Of a stretch of DNA of 11,452 bases, positions 1 to 7,330 are shown piece by piece. Position numbers and translations under genes: made by a program. This stretch comes from a virus (Duplodnaviria; Heunggongvirae; Uroviricota; Caudoviricetes), in IMG/VR virus record IMGVR_UViG_2660238548_000003, positions 1 through 11,452 of that record. One strand, given 5' to 3'. The notes beneath the pieces were generated by a model, which saw nothing but the letters and a program-made list of their open reading frames with translations, ran no database searches and was not told the origin of the DNA. How positions within the stretch are numbered: position 1 is the stretch's first letter; each line of letters begins with the position of its first letter.

Positions 1-110
1 TTATCAGTGTCTTTTTTCGTTACCGATTCCAATTCAAGTTCGTTCAGACGATGACGAAGTGTGTGTGCTGCAATCTCCTGGATTGAAGGAGGTAAATCTT
101 TAAATTCCAT
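1..110 (-). CDS. Small protein, 5' end present and 3' end running off the window (YdfB-like by position in a dicB-type operon)
   Basis: Minus-strand ATG at 110-108 preceded by GAGG 6 nt upstream and directly after the ydfA-like stop; reads MEFKDLPPSIQEIAAHTLRHRLNELELESVTKKDTD to the window edge. Not in the ORF track because it is truncated. Assignment rests on synteny only. Confidence 0.45.
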   Translation of the reverse strand, partial: MEFKDLPPSIQEIAAHTLRHRLNELELESVTKKDTD

Positions 111-121
111 CGTCAACCTCA

Positions 122-274
122 TCAGTCAGTGTTTCTGGCTAACCAGCGACGCGCGCCAGCTTCAGTTTTAAACGTTTTGCTTCTGGTATACGTCATCGCG
201 GTAAACGTGCCGTCCAGGTTGGGGAATACTCCGTATACCAGAGATTCGTTGTTGCCAAGATCGATAGTATCCAT
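122..274 (-). CDS. ydfA: YdfA-like small protein (50 aa), first gene downstream of dicA in the dicB-type operon
   Basis: Track ORF 122..418 trimmed to the internal ATG at 274-272, which has a GAGG Shine-Dalgarno 5 nt upstream; the longer start would overlap the operator repeats. Product MDTIDLGNNESLVYGVFPNLDGTFTAMTYTRSKTFKTEAGARRWLARNTD. Size and position immediately downstream of dicA match ydfA. Confidence 0.6.
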   Translation of the reverse strand: MDTIDLGNNESLVYGVFPNLDGTFTAMTYTRSKTFKTEAGARRWLARNTD

Positions 275-351
275 GTTGACCTCATTTCCCCTTAACGCCG
301 GGTAGCGGAACTGTTTGCTGAGAACACCGTGCGGTGTCTTGATGCAAGCAA

Positions 352-404
352 GATTAGTCATGGCTAACAAATTGGTCAAGCATTTTTGTTTGCCATGACT
401 AACA
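352..404. promoter_or_regulatory. Two operator-like sites (352-369 and inverted 387-404), consensus TGTTAG-TCATGG-CTAACA; likely DicA operator at the promoter of the leftward ydfA operon
   Basis: 17-bp exact repeat TTAGTCATGGCTAACAA at 354-370 and 900-916; an inverted 16/17 copy at 386-402. Sits between the dicA terminator-like palindrome and the ydfA start. A -35-like TTGACC lies on the minus strand at 374-379. Confidence 0.55.
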
Positions 405-420
405 TTTTGGGCAACCAAAA

Positions 421-445
421 AGATAACGCATTGATTGCGTTATCT
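421..445 (-). terminator. Palindrome AGATAACGCA-ttgat-TGCGTTATCT overlapping the dicA stop; candidate intrinsic terminator insulating dicA from the downstream operon
   Basis: Perfect 10-bp inverted arms with a 5-nt loop; on the minus strand it is followed by a U5 run, and on the plus strand by TTTTGTTTGTT, so it could act in either direction. Stem is only moderately GC-rich. Confidence 0.45.
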
Positions 446-847
446 TTTGTTTGTTCGTTGACGGGCTTTTAATAACTCTTCAAAGAGTTTGTTGAAATTT
501 TTTACTCGGGCGCGCATCTCGGTGAGCTGAGCATCCTGTTCTGATTCAGGCAATGCATTAAAAAGCTCAAGGAGCTCATGTTCTTTGGGGGATAGAGCAA
601 CTGGCTCCTCAATAGGTGGTGATGGCTGCTTGTCTTCATCGCCAAATAGAATCCATGTTGGCGAGCACTGCAGTACTTTGCTGAGGGCAAAAAGATTCTT
701 TCCTGTAGGTTCGCTATCATCCCGCTCCCATTGTGAAACCGATACGTGAGAAATTTTCAGGGCTTTAGCAAGAGACCTTTGGGTGTATTTGAGGTTTTTT
801 CGGCGATATCTAATGCGTTCGCCAATGGTTAAATTTTTTGTATCCAT
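440..847 (-). CDS. dicA: DicA-like repressor (135 aa, XRE-family HTH, no S24 peptidase domain)
   Basis: Track ORF 440..847. N-terminal HTH segment TQRSLAKALKISHVSVSQWERDDSEPTGKNLFALSKVL; 135 aa; divergent from a 76-aa Cro-like gene, with ydfA-like and ydfB-like ORFs downstream. Sequence matches my recollection of E. coli DicA closely. Confidence 0.85.
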   Translation of the reverse strand: MDTKNLTIGERIRYRRKNLKYTQRSLAKALKISHVSVSQWERDDSEPTGKNLFALSKVLQCSPTWILFGDEDKQPSPPIEEPVALSPKEHELLELFNALPESEQDAQLTEMRARVKNFNKLFEELLKARQRTNKR

Positions 848-869
848 AGTTAGCTAATGCTAAATCTTA

Positions 870-915
870 TTGACTATGTTTTTGTTAACATCTATTTTGT
901 TAGTCATGGCTAACA
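870..915 (+). promoter_or_regulatory. Candidate dicC promoter (-35 TTGACT 870-875, -10 TATTTT 893-898) overlapping a perfect palindromic operator TGTTAG-tcatgg-CTAACA (898-915)
   Basis: 17-bp spacing between the hexamers; the operator is the third copy of the repeat seen at 354-370 and shares the 6-bp inverted arms. Lies in the dicA-dicC divergent intergenic region. Confidence 0.5.
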
Positions 916-930
916 ATTAAGGTGCTTTAA

Positions 931-1161
931 ATGCTTAAAACTGACGCACTTTTGTATTTCGGTTCAAAAACAAAACTTGCACAAGCTGCTGGTATTCGTT
1001 TGGCTTCGCTTTATAGCTGGAAAGGGGAGCTAGTACCTGAAGGTCGCGCGATGCGCCTGCAAGAGGCATCCGGCGGGGAACTTCAGTACGACCCCAAAGT
1101 TTATGACGAATATCGTAAGGCAAAGCGGGCGGGGCGGTTGAACAATGAAAATCACCCCTGA
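931..1161 (+). CDS. dicC: DicC-like Cro-type regulator (76 aa)
   Basis: Track ORF 931..1161. AAGGTG Shine-Dalgarno 6 nt upstream of the ATG; 76 aa; divergent from dicA; matches my recollection of DicC (MLKTDALLYFGSKTKLAQAAGIRLASLYSWKG...). Confidence 0.8.
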   Translation: MLKTDALLYFGSKTKLAQAAGIRLASLYSWKGELVPEGRAMRLQEASGGELQYDPKVYDEYRKAKRAGRLNNENHP

Positions 1162-1666
1162 ACAGGTTTGTGAGGCTCTGGATGCCTGGGTATGTCGACC
1201 AGGAATGACACAGGAGCAGGCGACGATATTAATCACGGAAGCATTCTGGGCTCTGAAAGAACGCCCGAACATCGATGTTCAACGCGTCACGTTTAATGAT
1301 GGCGAGGTTGATCAACGGGCGCTGGGCGTTAACCGGGTGAAGATATTCGAACGCTGGAAAGCTATCGACACCAGGGATAAGCGGGAAAAATTCACGGCGC
1401 TGATTCCGGCAATTATGGAGGCTATCCGGATCAGCGATTTCAGATTGTATTGTGAAATTACTGACGGAAAAAGCATTACGTACATGATCGCCGGGTTAAA
1501 CAAAGAATATGGCGATGTGGTGGAGTCCGGGCTGCTTTTTGCGGATCCAGCTGTTGTGGAACGTGAAACTGACGAGCTTATAGAAAAAGCTATTGCTTTC
1601 AAGCATGCGTATCGTCAGCAATATCAACAAAAAGCCGGATGGAATTATGAGTCTTCTTTTTGCTGA
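1145..1666 (+). CDS. YdaT-like (CII-like) early regulator, 173 aa
   Basis: Track ORF 1145..1666; overlaps the dicC stop by 17 nt. Position immediately after the Cro-like gene, and N-terminus MKITPEQVCEALDAW plus a KIFERW...LIPAIMEAI segment, resemble Rac YdaT as I recall it. Family assignment unverified. Confidence 0.55.
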   Translation: MKITPEQVCEALDAWVCRPGMTQEQATILITEAFWALKERPNIDVQRVTFNDGEVDQRALGVNRVKIFERWKAIDTRDKREKFTALIPAIMEAIRISDFRLYCEITDGKSITYMIAGLNKEYGDVVESGLLFADPAVVERETDELIEKAIAFKHAYRQQYQQKAGWNYESSFC

Positions 1667-2612
1667 ACGCCCACTGGTTATTAACACTCAGCTGGCGATG
1701 AAAATAGGTCTGAACGAAGCCATTGTGTTACAGCAGCTGCATTACTGGTTGAGAGATACCGGTTCCGGCATGGAATGTGATGGTGTTCGCTGGATTTATA
1801 ACACAACAGAACAATGGCTGGAACAGTTCCCGTTCTGGTCAGAGTCAACGTTAAAACGCGCATTTGCAAGTCTGAAAACGCTGGGGCTTTTGCGTTGCGA
1901 AAAGCTCAACAAATCAAAGCGTGATATGACTAATTTTTACACGATTAATTACGAGAGCGAGCTTTTAGATGGTGGCAAAGTGAGCGAATCCATCAGGTCA
2001 AAATGCGCCGCTCCATCAGGTCAAAATGACACGATGGAAGAGGCCAAAATGGCACGCTCCATTGGTTCAAAACGACCCAATGTCATCGGGTCAAAATGGC
2101 CTGATGATCTTACAGAGAATACAACAGAGATTACTACAGAGAATAAAAACACTTCTCGTCCGGAAGCTTCGCAACCGGACATGCAGACGGCTGAACAGGA
2201 TTTTTTAAACCGACACCCTGACGCGGTTGTGTTCAGTGCGAAAAAACGCCAGTGGGGCAGCCAGGAGGATTTAGCGTGTGCGCAGTGGATCTGGGGACGA
2301 ATCGTGAGTCTTTACGAGCAGGCTGCCAGCGATGATGGCGAAATCATGCGACCGAAAGAACCAAACTGGACTGCATGGGCCAATGATGTGCGCACAATGC
2401 GGATGCTGGATGGCAGAACTCACAGACAAATTTGCGAAATGTTTGGTCGGGTACAGCGGGATCCATTCTGGGTAAAAAACGTCATGAGCCCGTCAAAGCT
2501 TCGCGAAAAATGGGATGAGCTGGTTATTCGTCTGGGGCGTTCGCCTGTACAGCGTTGTGTAAAACATATTTCTGAACCGGACACCGAAATTCCGCCGGGA
2601 TTCAGGGGGTAA
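1647..2612 (+). CDS. Replication initiator, lambda O-like / YdaU-like, containing the ori iterons
   Basis: Track ORF 1593..2612 begins at a TTG; I prefer ATG 1647 (MSLLFAERPLVINTQLAMKIGLNEAIVLQQLHYWL), with ATG 1605 as an alternative. Internal direct repeats at 1987-2099 are typical of an origin inside an O-type gene; immediately followed by a DnaC-like gene. Confidence 0.7.
   Translation: MSLLFAERPLVINTQLAMKIGLNEAIVLQQLHYWLRDTGSGMECDGVRWIYNTTEQWLEQFPFWSESTLKRAFASLKTLGLLRCEKLNKSKRDMTNFYTINYESELLDGGKVSESIRSKCAAPSGQNDTMEEAKMARSIGSKRPNVIGSKWPDDLTENTTEITTENKNTSRPEASQPDMQTAEQDFLNRHPDAVVFSAKKRQWGSQEDLACAQWIWGRIVSLYEQAASDDGEIMRPKEPNWTAWANDVRTMRMLDGRTHRQICEMFGRVQRDPFWVKNVMSPSKLREKWDELVIRLGRSPVQRCVKHISEPDTEIPPGFRG
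1987..2150. repeat. Origin-like iteron array: five ~19-bp direct repeats at ~23-bp spacing with core TCAAAATG, then an AT-rich tract with three tandem ACAGAGA(A/T)TA 12-mers
   Basis: Repeat units start at 1987, 2010, 2033 (degenerate), 2056 and 2081; for example AATCCATCAGGTCAAAATG and GCTCCATCAGGTCAAAATG. AT-rich repeats lie at 2111-2145. All are inside the O-like CDS, as in lambda ori. Confidence 0.7.
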
Positions 2613-2618
2613 CGAAGC

Positions 2619-3359
2619 ATGAAAAATATTGCGACAGGCGGTGTTCTTGAACGCATCCGTAAGCTGGCTCCGCAGCATGTAACCGCGCCATACCGAACAG
2701 TGGACGAGTGGCGCGAGTGGCAACTTGCAGAAGGCCAGAAGCGTTGTGAGGAGATCAACCGCCAGAATCGTCAGTTGCGGGTGGAAAAAATTCTGAATCG
2801 CTCCGGCATCCAGCCGTTGCACCGCAAGTGCTCGTTTGCGAATTACCAGGTGCAGAATGACGGCCAGCGATACGCGTTGAGCCAGGCGAAATCCATCGCC
2901 GATGAACTGATGACCGGATGCACAAATTTCGCATTCAGCGGAAAACCTGGTACCGGGAAAAACCACTTAGCGGCGGCTATCGGGAATCGCCTGCTGAAAG
3001 ATGGCCAGACAGTGATTGTGGTTACCGTGGCTGATGTTATGAGTGCTCTACACGCCAGCTATGACGACGGGCAATCAGGCGAAAAATTTTTGCGGGAACT
3101 GTGCGAAGTGGATCTGCTGGTTCTTGATGAAATTGGCATTCAGCGCGAGACGAAAAACGAGCAGGTGGTACTGCACCAGATTGTTGACCGCCGGACGGCA
3201 TCACTGCGCAGTGTCGGGATGCTGACAAACCTGAATCATGCCGCAATGAGCACGCTTCTTGGTGAGAGGATTATGGACCGGATGACCATGAACGGTGGTC
3301 GTTGGGTGAATTTTAACTGGGAGAGCTGGCGGTCAAACGTTGGACGTCAGGGTATGTGA
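2619..3359 (+). CDS. DnaC-like helicase loader (AAA+ ATPase), YdaV-like, 246 aa
   Basis: Track ORF 2619..3359. Walker A FSGKPGTGKNHLAAAIG and Walker B LLVLDEIG; length and motifs match DnaC/IstB-type loaders; directly downstream of the O-like gene. Confidence 0.85.
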   Translation: MKNIATGGVLERIRKLAPQHVTAPYRTVDEWREWQLAEGQKRCEEINRQNRQLRVEKILNRSGIQPLHRKCSFANYQVQNDGQRYALSQAKSIADELMTGCTNFAFSGKPGTGKNHLAAAIGNRLLKDGQTVIVVTVADVMSALHASYDDGQSGEKFLRELCEVDLLVLDEIGIQRETKNEQVVLHQIVDRRTASLRSVGMLTNLNHAAMSTLLGERIMDRMTMNGGRWVNFNWESWRSNVGRQGM

Positions 3360-3384
3360 GAATTTTTAACGAGGTGAATTTTCG

Positions 3385-4155
3385 ATGGAAACCGTATTAC
3401 ATGCACTGAAAGCGATGGGAAAAGCCAATTCTGTTGAACTGGCGGCACGAATTGATATCAGCCGTGAAGAAGTTCTCAACGAACTGTGGGAGCTCAAAAA
3501 AAATGGCGTTGTTGATAAAACGGGTCACACCTGGTTTCTGGCTGTCGAAGGTGAATCCCGGGTAACCGAAGAGCGGCCAGTAAAATCTGAAACACAGGAT
3601 ATGCTGACCGAAGAGGTCGCTCCAAAAGTTAGCGCTAACATGATGATTGAGTTTATCGGTCAGGATGGGGCTAAAACCTGTGAAGAAATAGCGGGTAAGT
3701 TCGGTGTCAGTACTCGCAAGGTTGCTTCCACGCTGGCGGTGGTAACCGCAACGGGGCGGCTGGCACGCGTTAATCAGAACGGTAAATTTCGTTACTGCAT
3801 GCCGGGCGATAATTTACCAGCAGAGCCGAAAGCCGCGCTGGTAACGGAAAGTGATGGTAAGGCCTTTTCTCAGCCAGCAGGTGCTGCGTTACCAGTCCGG
3901 GAAGCCGCAACACAGGAAGAAATTAAAACAGAAACTGTGGCGGACATTGTGCAGCCGTTGCCATCGTTTACCGAAACGCAAGCAGATGAGCTGATTTTTC
4001 CGTCCCTTCGCAGGGCAAACCTGGCGCTGCGCAGGGCGAAAAGTGATGTTCAGAAGTGGGAGCGAGTCTGCGCCGCGCTGCGGGAGCTGAACAAGCACCG
4101 GGATATTGTTCGACAGATTACTGATTCTTCCCGCCGTGTTGTATCGGAAAAGTGA
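3385..4155 (+). CDS. Hypothetical protein, 256 aa
   Basis: Track ORF 3385..4155. GAGGTG Shine-Dalgarno 8 nt upstream of the ATG; long clean ORF in the operon direction. No family recognised with confidence. Confidence 0.6.
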   Translation: METVLHALKAMGKANSVELAARIDISREEVLNELWELKKNGVVDKTGHTWFLAVEGESRVTEERPVKSETQDMLTEEVAPKVSANMMIEFIGQDGAKTCEEIAGKFGVSTRKVASTLAVVTATGRLARVNQNGKFRYCMPGDNLPAEPKAALVTESDGKAFSQPAGAALPVREAATQEEIKTETVADIVQPLPSFTETQADELIFPSLRRANLALRRAKSDVQKWERVCAALRELNKHRDIVRQITDSSRRVVSEK

Positions 4156-4170
4156 TTGCCGGAGGCGCTT

Positions 4171-4563
4171 ATGGCAAAAGTATTTACACCAGAAGAGCGG
4201 GAAGAAGTGAAGGCGCGCATTGTGGAATTCGTGCGCCTGAGCGGACGAGAAACTTTTCGACAACTGGCAGATAAAACGGGTGTCAGTAAGACCGCTATTC
4301 GTCGTTTATCTGGTGCGCTTGCGGCCAGTGGTGATGTCTGGCTCTCTGGTTGCGGGGTATTTCCATCAGAGCAGGCGTATCGCGTATGGCGTAAGACACC
4401 GGAGAAGGCTGCTGACCCGACACTGATTCGAAAGTTACCTGACGGAGAAATACGTCGTTACAACAGACGGCAGAACATAATTTGTCGTGAGTGCCGCCAG
4501 AGCGAAGTTATGCAGCGTGTGCTGGCGTTCTATCGGGGAAACTTTCAGGAGGTGATGGAGTGA
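4171..4563 (+). CDS. Hypothetical protein, ~130 aa, with an HTH-like segment and a C-terminal CxxC
   Basis: Track ORF 4156..4563 starts at a TTG; ATG 4171 has GGAGG 5 nt upstream. Contains FRQLADKTGVSKTAIRRL and ICRECRQ. Confidence 0.55.
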   Translation: MAKVFTPEEREEVKARIVEFVRLSGRETFRQLADKTGVSKTAIRRLSGALAASGDVWLSGCGVFPSEQAYRVWRKTPEKAADPTLIRKLPDGEIRRYNRRQNIICRECRQSEVMQRVLAFYRGNFQEVME

Positions 4564-4856
4564 GGGTGAGAGTTTATATTGCCGGTCCAATGACGGGATA
4601 TGAAAATTTCAACCGTGAGGCGTTTCACAAGGCGGAAGAGGAACTGAAACGGGAAGGGCATACCGTCTTAAACCCGGCAGTACTTCCGGACGGGCTGACA
4701 CAGCCGCACTACATGGATATTTGCATGGCAATGATTCGTTGCGTGGATGCGATTTACATGCTGAATGGCTGGCAGCGGTCAGCGGGCGCTAAGGCAGAGC
4801 TGGCACTGGCGGAGAAACTGGGACATGCGGTGATTTATCAGGAGGTGGCTCAATGA
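4560..4856 (+). CDS. DUF4406-like protein (nucleoside 2-deoxyribosyltransferase-like fold family), ~98 aa
   Basis: Track ORF 4491..4856 trimmed to GTG 4560, which overlaps the upstream stop (GTGA) and has AGGAGG 8 nt upstream. Motifs VYIAGPMTGY, VLNP and NGWQRSAGAKAELALA match my recollection of DUF4406 proteins. Unverified. Confidence 0.6.
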   Translation: MRVRVYIAGPMTGYENFNREAFHKAEEELKREGHTVLNPAVLPDGLTQPHYMDICMAMIRCVDAIYMLNGWQRSAGAKAELALAEKLGHAVIYQEVAQ

Positions 4857-5467
4857 GAGAGGTTAACTATGAGGCGCTTCGTGAAGCAGCAGAGAAAGCA
4901 ACTAAAGGATGCTACATCGTAGGGCATACATCGGGCAATCAGCATGGGAATATAACAGGAGTTTTTGTTTGTCAAAAATGGAAAGGAGAACCCGGTGGCG
5001 TGATTGCGGAATGTCATGTTAACTGCCTGATTGAATCAGATGCTCAGGCTTATGCAAACGCTGAATTCATAGCAGAGGCTAACCCGGCTACCGTGCTGGA
5101 ATTACTGGATGAACTGGAAGCCCAAAGCAAACGCATTGCAGAGCTGGAGACTAATCTTGCTGCGCTTGCGGCGGAGAATGCGGGGCTGAATAAATTTATC
5201 GTACAGAGTTGCTACGTGTTTGATGGCGAGCAGGATGAACTATCTGATGCGTATATCTGTGCAATAGACGGAAGGATGCCGCAAATCCCAGCCACCGACG
5301 CTTTCCTGGCGGATGTGCGGGCTGGGGCGTTTAACGACCTTTGCGCGGCGTTTGTCAGGCACGCAAAAATTGCAGGACTGGACGATGGCGATCTCGTTAC
5401 GGTGAAAGAAGCGACTGATGCGCTGCTGCACTGTGCAGAACAGCTTCGGGAGGGATTCAAGCAATGA
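4853..5467 (+). CDS. ead/Ea22-like family protein, 204 aa
   Basis: Track ORF 4853..5467. ATGA start/stop overlap with the upstream gene and GGAGG 6 nt upstream. Contains NPATVLELLDELEAQSKRIAELETNLAALAAENAGL, a coiled-coil signature I associate with Ea22-like prophage proteins. Confidence 0.5.
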   Translation: MREVNYEALREAAEKATKGCYIVGHTSGNQHGNITGVFVCQKWKGEPGGVIAECHVNCLIESDAQAYANAEFIAEANPATVLELLDELEAQSKRIAELETNLAALAAENAGLNKFIVQSCYVFDGEQDELSDAYICAIDGRMPQIPATDAFLADVRAGAFNDLCAAFVRHAKIAGLDDGDLVTVKEATDALLHCAEQLREGFKQ

Positions 5468-5748
5468 GTGAATCAAAATGTCAGATTAATGGCAATCAGA
5501 TAGAGCCGTGCGCGGCGTTGTCAAAATCTCTCGAATATGGAAATCCAACGTTCAAGAGTAAAGGGATATTTATCCCGGAGCGTGTGAACATAAACACTGG
5601 CGAGTCAGGCTTGGATATTGCTCAAATTCACTCTGGGAAATATATCGGTCGTGGCGTTGCAATGTGCTTTTGCCCGTTCTGTGGTGAAAGTTTGAAAACG
5701 TGGGAGGAAACGAGTGAGCAATACAAAAAATCATGGCATGAAATTTAA
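5464..5748 (+). CDS. Hypothetical small protein, 94 aa, with a C-terminal CPFCGE motif
   Basis: Track ORF 5464..5748. ATGA overlap with the upstream stop (translational coupling). Function unknown. Confidence 0.5.
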   Translation: MSESKCQINGNQIEPCAALSKSLEYGNPTFKSKGIFIPERVNINTGESGLDIAQIHSGKYIGRGVAMCFCPFCGESLKTWEETSEQYKKSWHEI

Positions 5749-6319
5749 AGGAACACCAGGTCCATGGCATGTAAGTTTCCACGGTTCAGCTAATTGCTGG
5801 GTAGTGGATAGTGAACGCGATAAGGCAATTGCTAAGGTGACAGAATACAACAATGACTGGCAGATGCAGAAAGCTAATTTTCAGCTTTTAGCGGCAGCAC
5901 CAGAATTACTTGAAGCCCTGCAAGCGGTGGTTCGTGTTGCTGACAGAAAAACCGATGAATTCGAAATGGCCCATTCTGCAATTAACAAAGCATTAGGAGT
6001 GATACTGATGAACGTAATTAAAGAAATACCAGTAATGCGTGATGAATATGGCTGCTGGACGCATCCTGAATATGAAAAATTCTGTGATGGTCGGGAATAT
6101 ATTTCAACGGAAGAGTTTAACGCCTGGATGGAGGAAAATAATCTTCAATACGTCCTCTGCTTCAGAGATGAAGGATGTGCTGACCTTGATGCGTGTGATG
6201 CTGATATTTCTGCATGGGAACCGGAACGACCAGAGGGCGATGGCTGGTTTATTGGTTCCATTCATGATACGGAAGATGGCCCGGTTTGTGTCTGGTTGCG
6301 AAATAAGGCTGAAGCATAA
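5714..6319 (+). CDS. Hypothetical protein, 201 aa, with an Ea22-like N-terminal motif (GTPGPWHV...LLAAAPELLEAL)
   Basis: Track ORF 5714..6319. GTG start with GGAGG 6 nt upstream; overlaps the previous gene by 35 nt. An in-frame ATG at 5738 is an alternative start without a Shine-Dalgarno. Confidence 0.55.
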   Translation: MSNTKNHGMKFKGTPGPWHVSFHGSANCWVVDSERDKAIAKVTEYNNDWQMQKANFQLLAAAPELLEALQAVVRVADRKTDEFEMAHSAINKALGVILMNVIKEIPVMRDEYGCWTHPEYEKFCDGREYISTEEFNAWMEENNLQYVLCFRDEGCADLDACDADISAWEPERPEGDGWFIGSIHDTEDGPVCVWLRNKAEA

Positions 6320-6423
6320 AGGCGATAAACCAACTAACAACTAAATACTGAAGATTTAAATCAGAAACGATTTTTATTAAATCCTTAACCGGAGGGATTC
6401 CTGCACCCTCAGAACATCAGGAG

Positions 6424-6441
6424 GCCGCCCGAAAGGGCGGT
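6424..6441 (+). other. GC-rich hairpin with a GAAA (GNRA) tetraloop in the 6320-6516 intergenic region
   Basis: GCCGCCC-GAAA-GGGCGGT. No U-run follows on either strand, so it is not a canonical intrinsic terminator; possibly an mRNA-stabilising or processing element. Confidence 0.4.
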
Positions 6442-6516
6442 AATAAAAATGGCAGAACTAACTAAAGAATGGTTGCAACAAACAATTACTGATATTCAGA
6501 GCAATTGAGGTGAGAA

Positions 6517-6687
6517 ATGCGGATGGAAAATTGTTTATTGCCGTATCTGGTGCGGTTTGGGGCGTCGTCATTAACAGTTATTCCACATGTCATGATGGCT
6601 GACAATATTATCCCGGCACCAAAGCGCCATACCGGTATTGCAGCGGCGCGACGTGCAGCAAAGAGACGCAGGAGAGCAAAACGATGA
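6517..6687 (+). CDS. Small basic ORF (56 aa, or ~31 aa from the internal MMADN start), not in the ORF track
   Basis: ATG 6517 with GAGGTG 4 nt upstream; ends ...RRAAKRRRRAKR with a TGA overlapping the next ATG (ATGA at 6684). Coding status uncertain. Confidence 0.35.
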   Translation: MRMENCLLPYLVRFGASSLTVIPHVMMADNIIPAPKRHTGIAAARRAAKRRRRAKR

Positions 6688-6875
6688 AAAACCGTAAAGC
6701 AAAGATGCTTATTTCCCGTGTATACAGACGTTGCTATCCCAGCCAGTGGTTGAGAGTTAGCAATCGCCGTGTGGTGTTGTACTTATATTCTGGAATTGCC
6801 AGAGAGGGAATCAAAGATAAGCGCAGCGCGGCGCAAAACCGCTGGAAAAACCACTTGCGCACTAAAGGAGCTTGA
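6684..6875 (+). CDS. Hypothetical small basic protein, 63 aa
   Basis: Track ORF 6684..6875. GGAG ~9 nt upstream; tightly packed with flanking ORFs. Confidence 0.45.
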   Translation: MKNRKAKMLISRVYRRCYPSQWLRVSNRRVVLYLYSGIAREGIKDKRSAAQNRWKNHLRTKGA

Positions 6876-6876
6876 T

Positions 6877-7086
6877 ATGGCTATTGCCGCAAGTTACACC
6901 ATGCATCTCTACTGTGATTGTCGCCAGTGTACAAATGGTAAATATCAGTCACCAGACTTCGGTGAGTATATAGGTACGTCATGGGCTGGCTGTGCAAAAG
7001 AGGCGCGCAAGGATGGCTGGCGAATAAGCAAAGACAAAACGCGTGCTTTTTCACCCGGGCATAAAGTTTTGAGGATTAACAAATGA
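6877..7086 (+). CDS. Hypothetical Cys-rich small protein, 69 aa
   Basis: Track ORF 6769..7086 trimmed to ATG 6877 (AAAGGAG 6 nt upstream), which starts 1 nt after the previous stop. Product MAIAASYTMHLYCDCRQCTNGKYQ... Confidence 0.5.
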   Translation: MAIAASYTMHLYCDCRQCTNGKYQSPDFGEYIGTSWAGCAKEARKDGWRISKDKTRAFSPGHKVLRINK

Positions 7087-7322
7087 CAACATTTACCGAC
7101 GACGACAAGAAACTAATTAAAGAAATCAAAGAGCGTATCAGCAGCCTGGAGGTTCGAGACGATATTGAGCGCCGGGCTTATGAAATAGCGTTAGCCTCGC
7201 TGGAAGCAGAGCCGGTGGCATGGCTGCATTCAGACAATGGCTTAGGTATTCCGGCAATAACGAGGAGTAAAAACATTGCTGACAGTTATCAAAGAGCTGG
7301 TATGTTCAGCCGCTATATATAG
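7083..7322 (+). CDS. Hypothetical protein, 79 aa; possibly the N-terminal part of a gene split by a frameshift
   Basis: Track ORF 7083..7322. ATGA overlap with the upstream stop and GAGGA 8 nt upstream. The downstream ORF is open in another frame across 7283-7322. Confidence 0.5.
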   Translation: MTTFTDDDKKLIKEIKERISSLEVRDDIERRAYEIALASLEAEPVAWLHSDNGLGIPAITRSKNIADSYQRAGMFSRYI

Positions 7323-7330
7323 CCAAGCCA

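Follow-up and report, generated by a model that had tools for sequence, protein, structure and literature searches.

In phage lambda, the P-ren-NinB...NinI-Q stretch contains six overlaps of 4 nucleotides (nt) between consecutive genes, plus overlaps of 34, 11, and 23 nt. Published Ea22 proteins, another product of lambdoid early regions, have a conserved N-terminus, a linker that forms a coiled coil, and interchangeable C-terminal domains (PMC7093339, PMC10834534). The structure of an Ea22 C-terminal domain has been solved and a pro-lysogenic phenotype has been published (PMC7093339, PMC10834534), the latter described for the lambda and Stx-phage ea22 alleles (PMC7093339). Here, we analyzed a stretch of 11,452 nt, referred to as the window, which comprises positions 1 to 11,452 of the IMG/VR virus record IMGVR_UViG_2660238548_000003 (Caudoviricetes), and within it the interval 4171-6319. 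We consider it very probable that this interval consists of independently exchangeable accessory genes and that it forms the promoter-distal accessory portion of the early operon which runs rightward in a Rac-family lambdoid prophage. It would be made of six ancestral modules, namely a Ren-like DUF977 gene, a DUF4406 gene, an Ea22-like gene, a gene for a small protein with four invariant cysteines (Cys4), a PF27050-type gene, and a phrog_1372-type gene. The preliminary description of this DNA had recognized five genes and taken them as a single translationally coupled accessory cassette. The set found here would instead be one rare combination of modules, not a co-adapted unit.

The interval occupies the position that ren and nin have in lambda, with the replication genes on one side and the DUF968/RusA/Q block on the other. 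The likeness to the lambda region is extensive: the genes follow the replication genes, precede a Holliday-junction resolvase and Q on the same strand, and line up as small, non-essential genes whose starts and stops overlap by 4 nt or more, and the first of them, gene 1, is homologous to lambda Ren. The contents are different. Where lambda has NinB-NinI, the interval has DUF4406, Ea22-like, Cys4, PF27050, and phrog_1372 proteins, and a DUF1627 gene separates the replication genes from the Ren homologue.

Four complete Escherichia coli genomes (6817, 00_3230, 03_3503, and 7_11_88A) carry chromosomal prophage DNA that matches positions 4100-6400 of the window with 100% identity. Judging by its RefSeq annotation, the prophage of strain 6817 is of the Rac-like lambdoid type. 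Its leftward genes code for the RecT recombinase, a PD-(D/E)XK nuclease, and dicB, followed by the repressor. The rightward order is cro-like regulator, ydaT, two replication genes, DUF1627, and the interval 4171-6319, and continues with a frameshifted DUF551 gene, the gene for a P63C protein, hok, DUF968, RusA, and the antitermination protein. The Rac prophage of E. coli K-12 has the same upstream backbone, which includes recE/recT, the immunity region, ydaS/ydaT, and replication genes of the ydaU/ydaV type, but there ydaW is followed directly by rzpR, the accessory stretch being deleted in K-12. The coordinates of the features are collected in Table 1.

Table 1. Features of the interval 4171-6319 and the candidate early promoter, in window coordinates
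Feature	Position	Strand	Remarks
pR-like promoter candidate	870-898	+	TTGACT-17-TATTTT, directly upstream of the cro-like gene at 931; consensus match only
Gene 1: DUF977 / Ren-like protein, 130 aa	4171-4563	+	Pfam, PHROG, BLASTP; PGAP coordinates identical
Gene 2: DUF4406 protein, 98 aa, N-(deoxy)ribosyltransferase-like fold	4560-4856	+	
Gene 3: Ead/Ea22-like protein, 204 aa, intact chimera	4853-5467	+	Pfam, PHROG, allele alignments
Gene 4: small conserved protein, 94 aa, four invariant cysteines	5464-5748	+	phrog_4030, E 3.7e-30
Gene 5a: PF27050 (Phage_P22_Y8K6)-type module, ~98 aa	5714-6007	+	Own stop codon lost; reads into 5b
1-nt deletion site	6003/6004	+	GATAACTG in relatives, GATACTG here (one A lost); three-way DNA alignment
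Gene 5b: widespread 103-aa phage protein, phrog_1372 family	6008-6319	+	Own ribosome-binding site and ATG kept inside the fused open reading frame

The distribution of these genes was examined in 5426 complete E. coli genomes. Pieces of the interval are present in 2555 of them and the whole interval in only four. The DUF977-DUF4406 pair occurs in 480 genomes, and what follows it varies from genome to genome (Ea22-like, RseB-domain, or DUF4752 genes). DUF4406 is also found after other genes, and in those cases the homology begins at 4557, 3 nt upstream of the DUF4406 start. Around gene 3 the homology breaks at 4852, at 5076-5183, and at 5448, which correspond to the start, the interior, and a point near the end of the gene. 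Gene 4, present in 26-28 of the genomes, lies beside DUF2737, DUF4752, or HNH genes, and its DNA homology ends at ~5706, just before the ribosome-binding site (RBS) of the next module. Alternative gene orders were found in A30, CM2010-0578/1, O55:H7, E2865, and O103; in A30, DUF977 is directly followed by an open reading frame (ORF) of the size of gene 4 and then by 5a and 5b, while in CM2010-0578/1 DUF1627 is directly followed by 5a and 5b. Because the homology breaks coincide with gene boundaries, every start/stop junction is also a recombination joint. The tight junctions belong to the modules and not to the set seen here, and the comparisons describe a classic lambdoid mosaic, in which each module is swapped on its own between lambdoid phages, the recombination taking place at the start codons or a short way upstream. 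The preliminary view of a coherent five-gene functional unit finds no support in these alignments.

The junctions themselves are as the preliminary description had reported them. The GTGA at 4560-4563 holds the stop codon of gene 1 (TGA, 4561-4563) and the start of gene 2 (GTG, 4560), the ATGA at 4853-4856 holds the stop of gene 2 (TGA, 4854-4856) and the start of gene 3 (ATG, 4853), and the ATGA at 5464-5467 holds the stop of gene 3 (TGA, 5465-5467) and the start of gene 4 (ATG, 5464). The last overlap, of 35 nt (5714-5748), extends from the GTG at 5714, where the next ORF begins, to the stop codon of gene 4 (TAA, 5746-5748). The starts of genes 1, 2, 3, and 4 are identical in RefSeq (PGAP), and the GTG equivalent to 5714 was chosen by PGAP in two relatives, A30 and CM2010-0578/1. 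Every start is preceded, 5-10 nt upstream and within the preceding gene, by GGAGG or AGGAG; the distance is 5 nt for the GGAGG before the ATG of gene 1 and 6 nt for the GGAGG before GTG 5714. For gene 2, the RBS spacing of 7 nt for GTG 4560 versus 13 nt for GTG 4566 favors the former. PHROG matches were absent among the antisense and alternative-frame ORFs of the interval. A start that overlaps the upstream stop, together with an RBS inside the upstream gene, is the structural arrangement of a translationally coupled operon. Each module has a strong Shine-Dalgarno sequence within the 3′ end of the preceding gene, the overlaps of 4-35 nt account for the compact packing, and they would probably let ribosomes that terminate re-initiate on the next gene. 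Prophage relatives with other gene sets show equal packing, and the tight packing of the interval is nothing unusual.

The co-orientation of the interval with the early rightward operon, also proposed earlier, agrees with the signals recognized in the window. The pR-like candidate listed in Table 1 is the likely source of a transcript spanning the interval, a consensus scan of the + strand found neither promoter-like nor terminator-like sites between 899 and 6581, and the Q antiterminator is located downstream of the interval, which shares the early rightward orientation. Both promoter and terminator scans return consensus matches at background frequency, and the layout only fits a single long early transcript, short of proof.

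The fifth ORF (5714-6319, 201 amino acids (aa)), regarded at first as one gene, is by the alignments two ancestral genes, 5a and 5b, joined in frame by a 1-nt deletion. PHROG splits it into a match to phrog_1273 at residues 9-95 (E 2.6e-18) and a match to phrog_1372 at residues 61-200. Across 5.8 billion clusters, coverage of the ORF by any one protein does not exceed 64%; the matching clusters are either PF27050-type proteins of ~110 aa, which align with the N-terminal half, or proteins that align with the C-terminal half. The tblastn matches, which come from phages of Escherichia, Klebsiella, Yersinia, Erwinia, Pectobacterium, Pseudomonas, and others, are confined to residues ~97-201, and in ~650 E. 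coli genomes the homology starts exactly at ATG 6008, the PGAP start of the 103-aa protein. The N-terminal half was found in only eight E. coli genomes, in six of them in the fused form. In the other arrangement, that of A30 and CM2010-0578/1, PGAP annotates two separate genes, one of 309 nt and the other of 312 nt, with a 14-nt overlap, and 5a has 102 aa. The closest homologues of 5a are free-standing proteins of ~110 aa, 59-60% identical to it, that carry precomputed PF27050 hits, whereas 5a has no stop codon and is in frame with 5b because one A was deleted at 6003/6004. Although 5a itself had no PF27050 match in a Pfam scan, it shares the invariant TPGPW and AAPELLEAL motifs with the PF27050-type homologues. 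In the source genomes of the window, 5714-6007 is without an annotated gene, though it codes for an almost entire PF27050-type protein, which in A30 and CM2010-0578/1 has a gene annotation of its own.

The deletion is probably real, and a sequencing error unlikely, because six independently assembled genomes have it and it does not lie in a long homopolymer. A PF27050-type N-terminus was absent from the top 150 representatives of the 5b family in an hmmsearch with a PF27050-type profile, so the fusion is not a recurrent architecture. The AGGAG located 8 nt before ATG 6008 is intact, and for this reason the 103-aa product of 5b can probably still be made, starting from the internal RBS and ATG.

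The family of 5b has more than 1000 representative clusters. Structure prediction, which covered 5b alone and not the full 201-aa ORF, gave a confident fold without a solved structural relative. A comparison of 20 long homologues of 5b with Pfam, in search of informative domain fusions, produced only one match above threshold (DHHA1). A profile of 5a had no significant match in the PDB. When the PF27050 alignment was compared with the N-terminus of gene 3, with which it has the motif 'AN..IAAA.P..LLE.L' in common, the profile comparison gave a probability of 9%.

The 128 nt that follow 5b (6320-6447, + strand) are nearly invariant in four different prophage contexts, and divergence starts at ~6448. 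This segment holds a GGAGG (6420-6424) with the hairpin CCGCCC-GAAA-GGGCGG (6425-6440) directly behind it; next comes the start codon of the following module, which here belongs to a 19-aa ORF (6449-6508) and in A30 and O103 to a DUF4014 gene. Its fold z-score is -2.2, and a terminator scan made no call at the hairpin. The segment could be a hairpin-bridged RBS or a module boundary sequence.

Gene 3 supplies a second case of joined sequences. The preliminary assignment to the Ea22-like proteins holds, with a match to Pfam PF13935 (Ead_Ea22) at residues 3-111 (E 2.8e-26, 93.2 bits, cut-off 27) and a full-length match to phrog_368 (E 3e-54). Residues 1-62 are nearly identical to ArgO145 gp13, a 211-aa Ea22-like protein encoded in the leftward early region of a Stx2a phage, whose full-length identity to gene 3 is 68%, and over residues ~75-204 the protein is identical to an Ea22-like protein of strain E2865 that is intact and 193 aa long. 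PGAP annotates the gene only over 4853-5137 (285 nt; L001 9754-10038) and calls it 'incomplete, missing C-terminus' in 6817 and O55:H7 RM12579. The ORF is open over all 204 codons and can be aligned along its full length with two proteins annotated as intact, and despite the partial flag in RefSeq gene 3 is an intact chimera of two Ea22-like alleles. Two different Ead/Ea22-like paralogues lie in the leftward early region of ArgO145 (L014; 1488-2522 and 3501-4136), and the family is thus multi-copy within single phages.

Like the Ea22 proteins of lambda and Stx phages, the product of gene 3 has the N-terminal MSEI..ALREAAE motif and a three-part layout of N-terminal domain, conserved helical linker, and variable C-terminal domain. 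By C-terminal domain and location it does not qualify as an orthologue of lambda Ea22. In a BLASTP comparison only residues 1-16 and short linker segments align, the C-terminal domain does not resemble the solved one of lambda in sequence, and the gene is located in the rightward, pR-side operon, after the replication genes, instead of between exo and xis. A sequence search of the PDB with gene 3 returned nothing significant, and the solved lambda Ea22 C-terminal domain was not matched. The product of gene 3 is likely to be an oligomeric coiled-coil protein of the Ea22 type that modulates the lysis-lysogeny decision.

The fusion of 5a to 5b and the flag on gene 3 could be read as signs that the interval is the decaying cargo of a cryptic prophage, with several ORFs no longer functional and the packing a mere relic. 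We regard this as unlikely. Although gene 3 is marked incomplete by PGAP, 5714-6007 carries no annotation, the stop codon of 5a was lost by frameshift, the adjacent DUF551 and DUF1482 genes are frameshifted, and K-12 Rac is without the whole region, all the ORFs are open and each has an intact RBS. Moreover, gene 3 aligns over its entire length with proteins annotated as intact, strongly conserved residues are present in the family of every module, and the prophage keeps its recombination, immunity, and replication genes as well as RusA and the antiterminator.

The statement, made in the preliminary description, that none of the genes has a known function was too strong, since gene 1 is a Ren homologue and, for Ea22, the literature gives a pro-lysogenic phenotype and the structure of a C-terminal domain (PMC7093339, PMC10834534). 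Gene 1 passes the threshold of Pfam PF06163 (DUF977) with 141.6 bits (E 2.1e-41, cut-off 22.1), matches the phrog_142 'Ren-like exclusion protein' (E 1.2e-43), and aligns with lambda Ren in BLASTP with 29% identity over 90 residues (E 4e-9), an alignment that includes the C-terminal CRQS..M.RVLA.Y motif. On this evidence it is a homologue of lambda Ren. Weak matches of residues 3-57 to helix-turn-helix and winged-helix families point to a probable N-terminal winged-helix DNA-binding region, and the protein is likely to act as a DNA-binding protein of the Ren type. PHROG files the family under 'moron, auxiliary metabolic gene and host takeover'. A search of the PDB with gene 1 as a single sequence gave nothing significant, and no functional study of DUF977 was found in the literature.

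Gene 2 was correctly assigned to DUF4406 at the outset. It matches PF14359 at profile positions 2-91 of 91 (129.7 bits, cut-off 22; E 5.7e-38), and its three-layer alpha/beta fold superposes on nucleoside 2-deoxyribosyltransferase (NDT), MilB, and Rcl, in agreement with the nucleoside-deoxyribosyltransferase-like fold attributed to it. The score against the NDT family PF05014 is below threshold (14.4 bits, cut-off 28.8; E 0.042). Gene 2 belongs to the NDT superfamily, outside the PF05014 family. E80 of the S74-x-G76-A77-x-x-E80 motif is invariant in 40 homologues and, by motif and not by residue-level superposition, we infer that it is equivalent to the NDT nucleophile. In contrast to NDT, MilB, and Rcl (DNPH1), which have ~135-165 aa, gene 2 codes for only 98 aa and lacks the C-terminal third. 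The product is likely to be a small protein that binds a nucleoside or nucleotide or cleaves an N-glycosidic bond. Searches of the PDB by sequence, with a single sequence and with a profile, found no significant match, and no functional study of DUF4406 was found in the literature.

Gene 4 has homologues in 51 clusters. The cysteines that are invariant in their alignment, C6, C16 (Cys17 in raw protein numbering), C70, and C73, are arranged as C-x10-C ... C-x2-C, a pattern that suggests a probable zinc-binding protein. A gene 4 profile had no significant match in the PDB, the best being the zinc ribbon of an archaeal RNA polymerase subunit M (E 0.013). Beyond the conserved KTWE, the C-terminal tail varies among homologues. 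Its coding sequence is the 5′ overlap region, which moves together with the downstream module; in CM2010-0578/1, DUF1627 overlaps 5a by the same 35 nt.

With these products at hand, the interval could also be conceived as a co-adapted cassette for anti-defense or host takeover, in which, for example, a DUF4406 protein with a deoxyribosyltransferase/TIR-like fold destroys or sequesters nucleotide-derived immune signals with the help of its neighbors. This is very unlikely. A location in the non-essential early accessory region, the PHROG category of gene 1, which includes host takeover, and the recurrence of the DUF977-DUF4406 pair in 480 genomes are what such a cassette would lead one to expect, but the genes are reshuffled independently, as in A30 and CM2010-0578/1, and the full set persists in just four of the 5426 genomes. 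No literature was found tying DUF4406 or DUF977 to anti-defense, nor any paper tying NDT to prophage anti-defense. A PADLOC scan of genes 1-5 and DUF1627 gave only weak helix-turn-helix matches for gene 1 (E >=0.008), which we take as noise, and none for genes 2-5, weak evidence given that PADLOC models defense and not anti-defense. TIR-like similarity is expected of any member of the flavodoxin-like superfamily. Another reading, in which DUF4406 is an early-expressed minimal deoxyribosyltransferase/TIR-like enzyme or sponge that cleaves or sequesters immune signals or nucleotide pools, and 5b a host-directed protein with a fold absent from the PDB, is slightly less probable still.

The interpretation of the interval as a mosaic of exchangeable accessory genes has several points against it. 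The DUF977-DUF4406 pair is fairly stable, and a functional link between the two may exist. Most carriers of 5a have the fused form (six of eight genomes), which may be tolerated, or even under selection, instead of a neutral lesion. While the anatomy, the homologies, and the mosaicism were observed, transcription, translation, coupling, and the biochemical roles are all inferred, with promoter and terminator scans that perform at background frequency, and the functions of the genes are assigned by homology to families whose own characterization is poor.

Some features of the neighboring DNA are worth recording. The DUF551 gene annotated as frameshifted corresponds to two ORFs in the window, 7083-7322 and 7331-7864 (whole span 7083-7864), and the neighboring DUF1482 gene is also frameshifted. 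A Hok/Gef family toxin gene is annotated at 9065-9187 on the + strand; a search of the whole window against Rfam at the gathering threshold found zero RNA families, including Sok and hok-mRNA. The PGAP start of the replication-initiator-like gene (1593-2612) in strain 6817 (locus 6725) maps to position 1824 of the window, which is a CAG codon. Either the window differs from strain 6817 upstream of the matched segment or the coordinate offset fails there.

The region is an instance of textbook lambdoid mosaicism, of a known kind and already annotated in RefSeq, and as such matters little. What is new here is minor: the fusion of 5a with 5b, a chimeric Ea22-like gene that is intact though flagged as partial, and the confident fold of 5b, which has no solved relative. 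The analysis yields three corrections of the annotation: gene 3 is intact, 5714-6007 is a real module that was left unannotated in the RefSeq records of the source genomes, and the 201-aa ORF is a recent fusion. Two of the proteins are tractable targets, gene 2 as a very small protein with the deoxyribosyltransferase fold and 5b as a widespread phage protein whose predicted fold is confident and without a solved relative.

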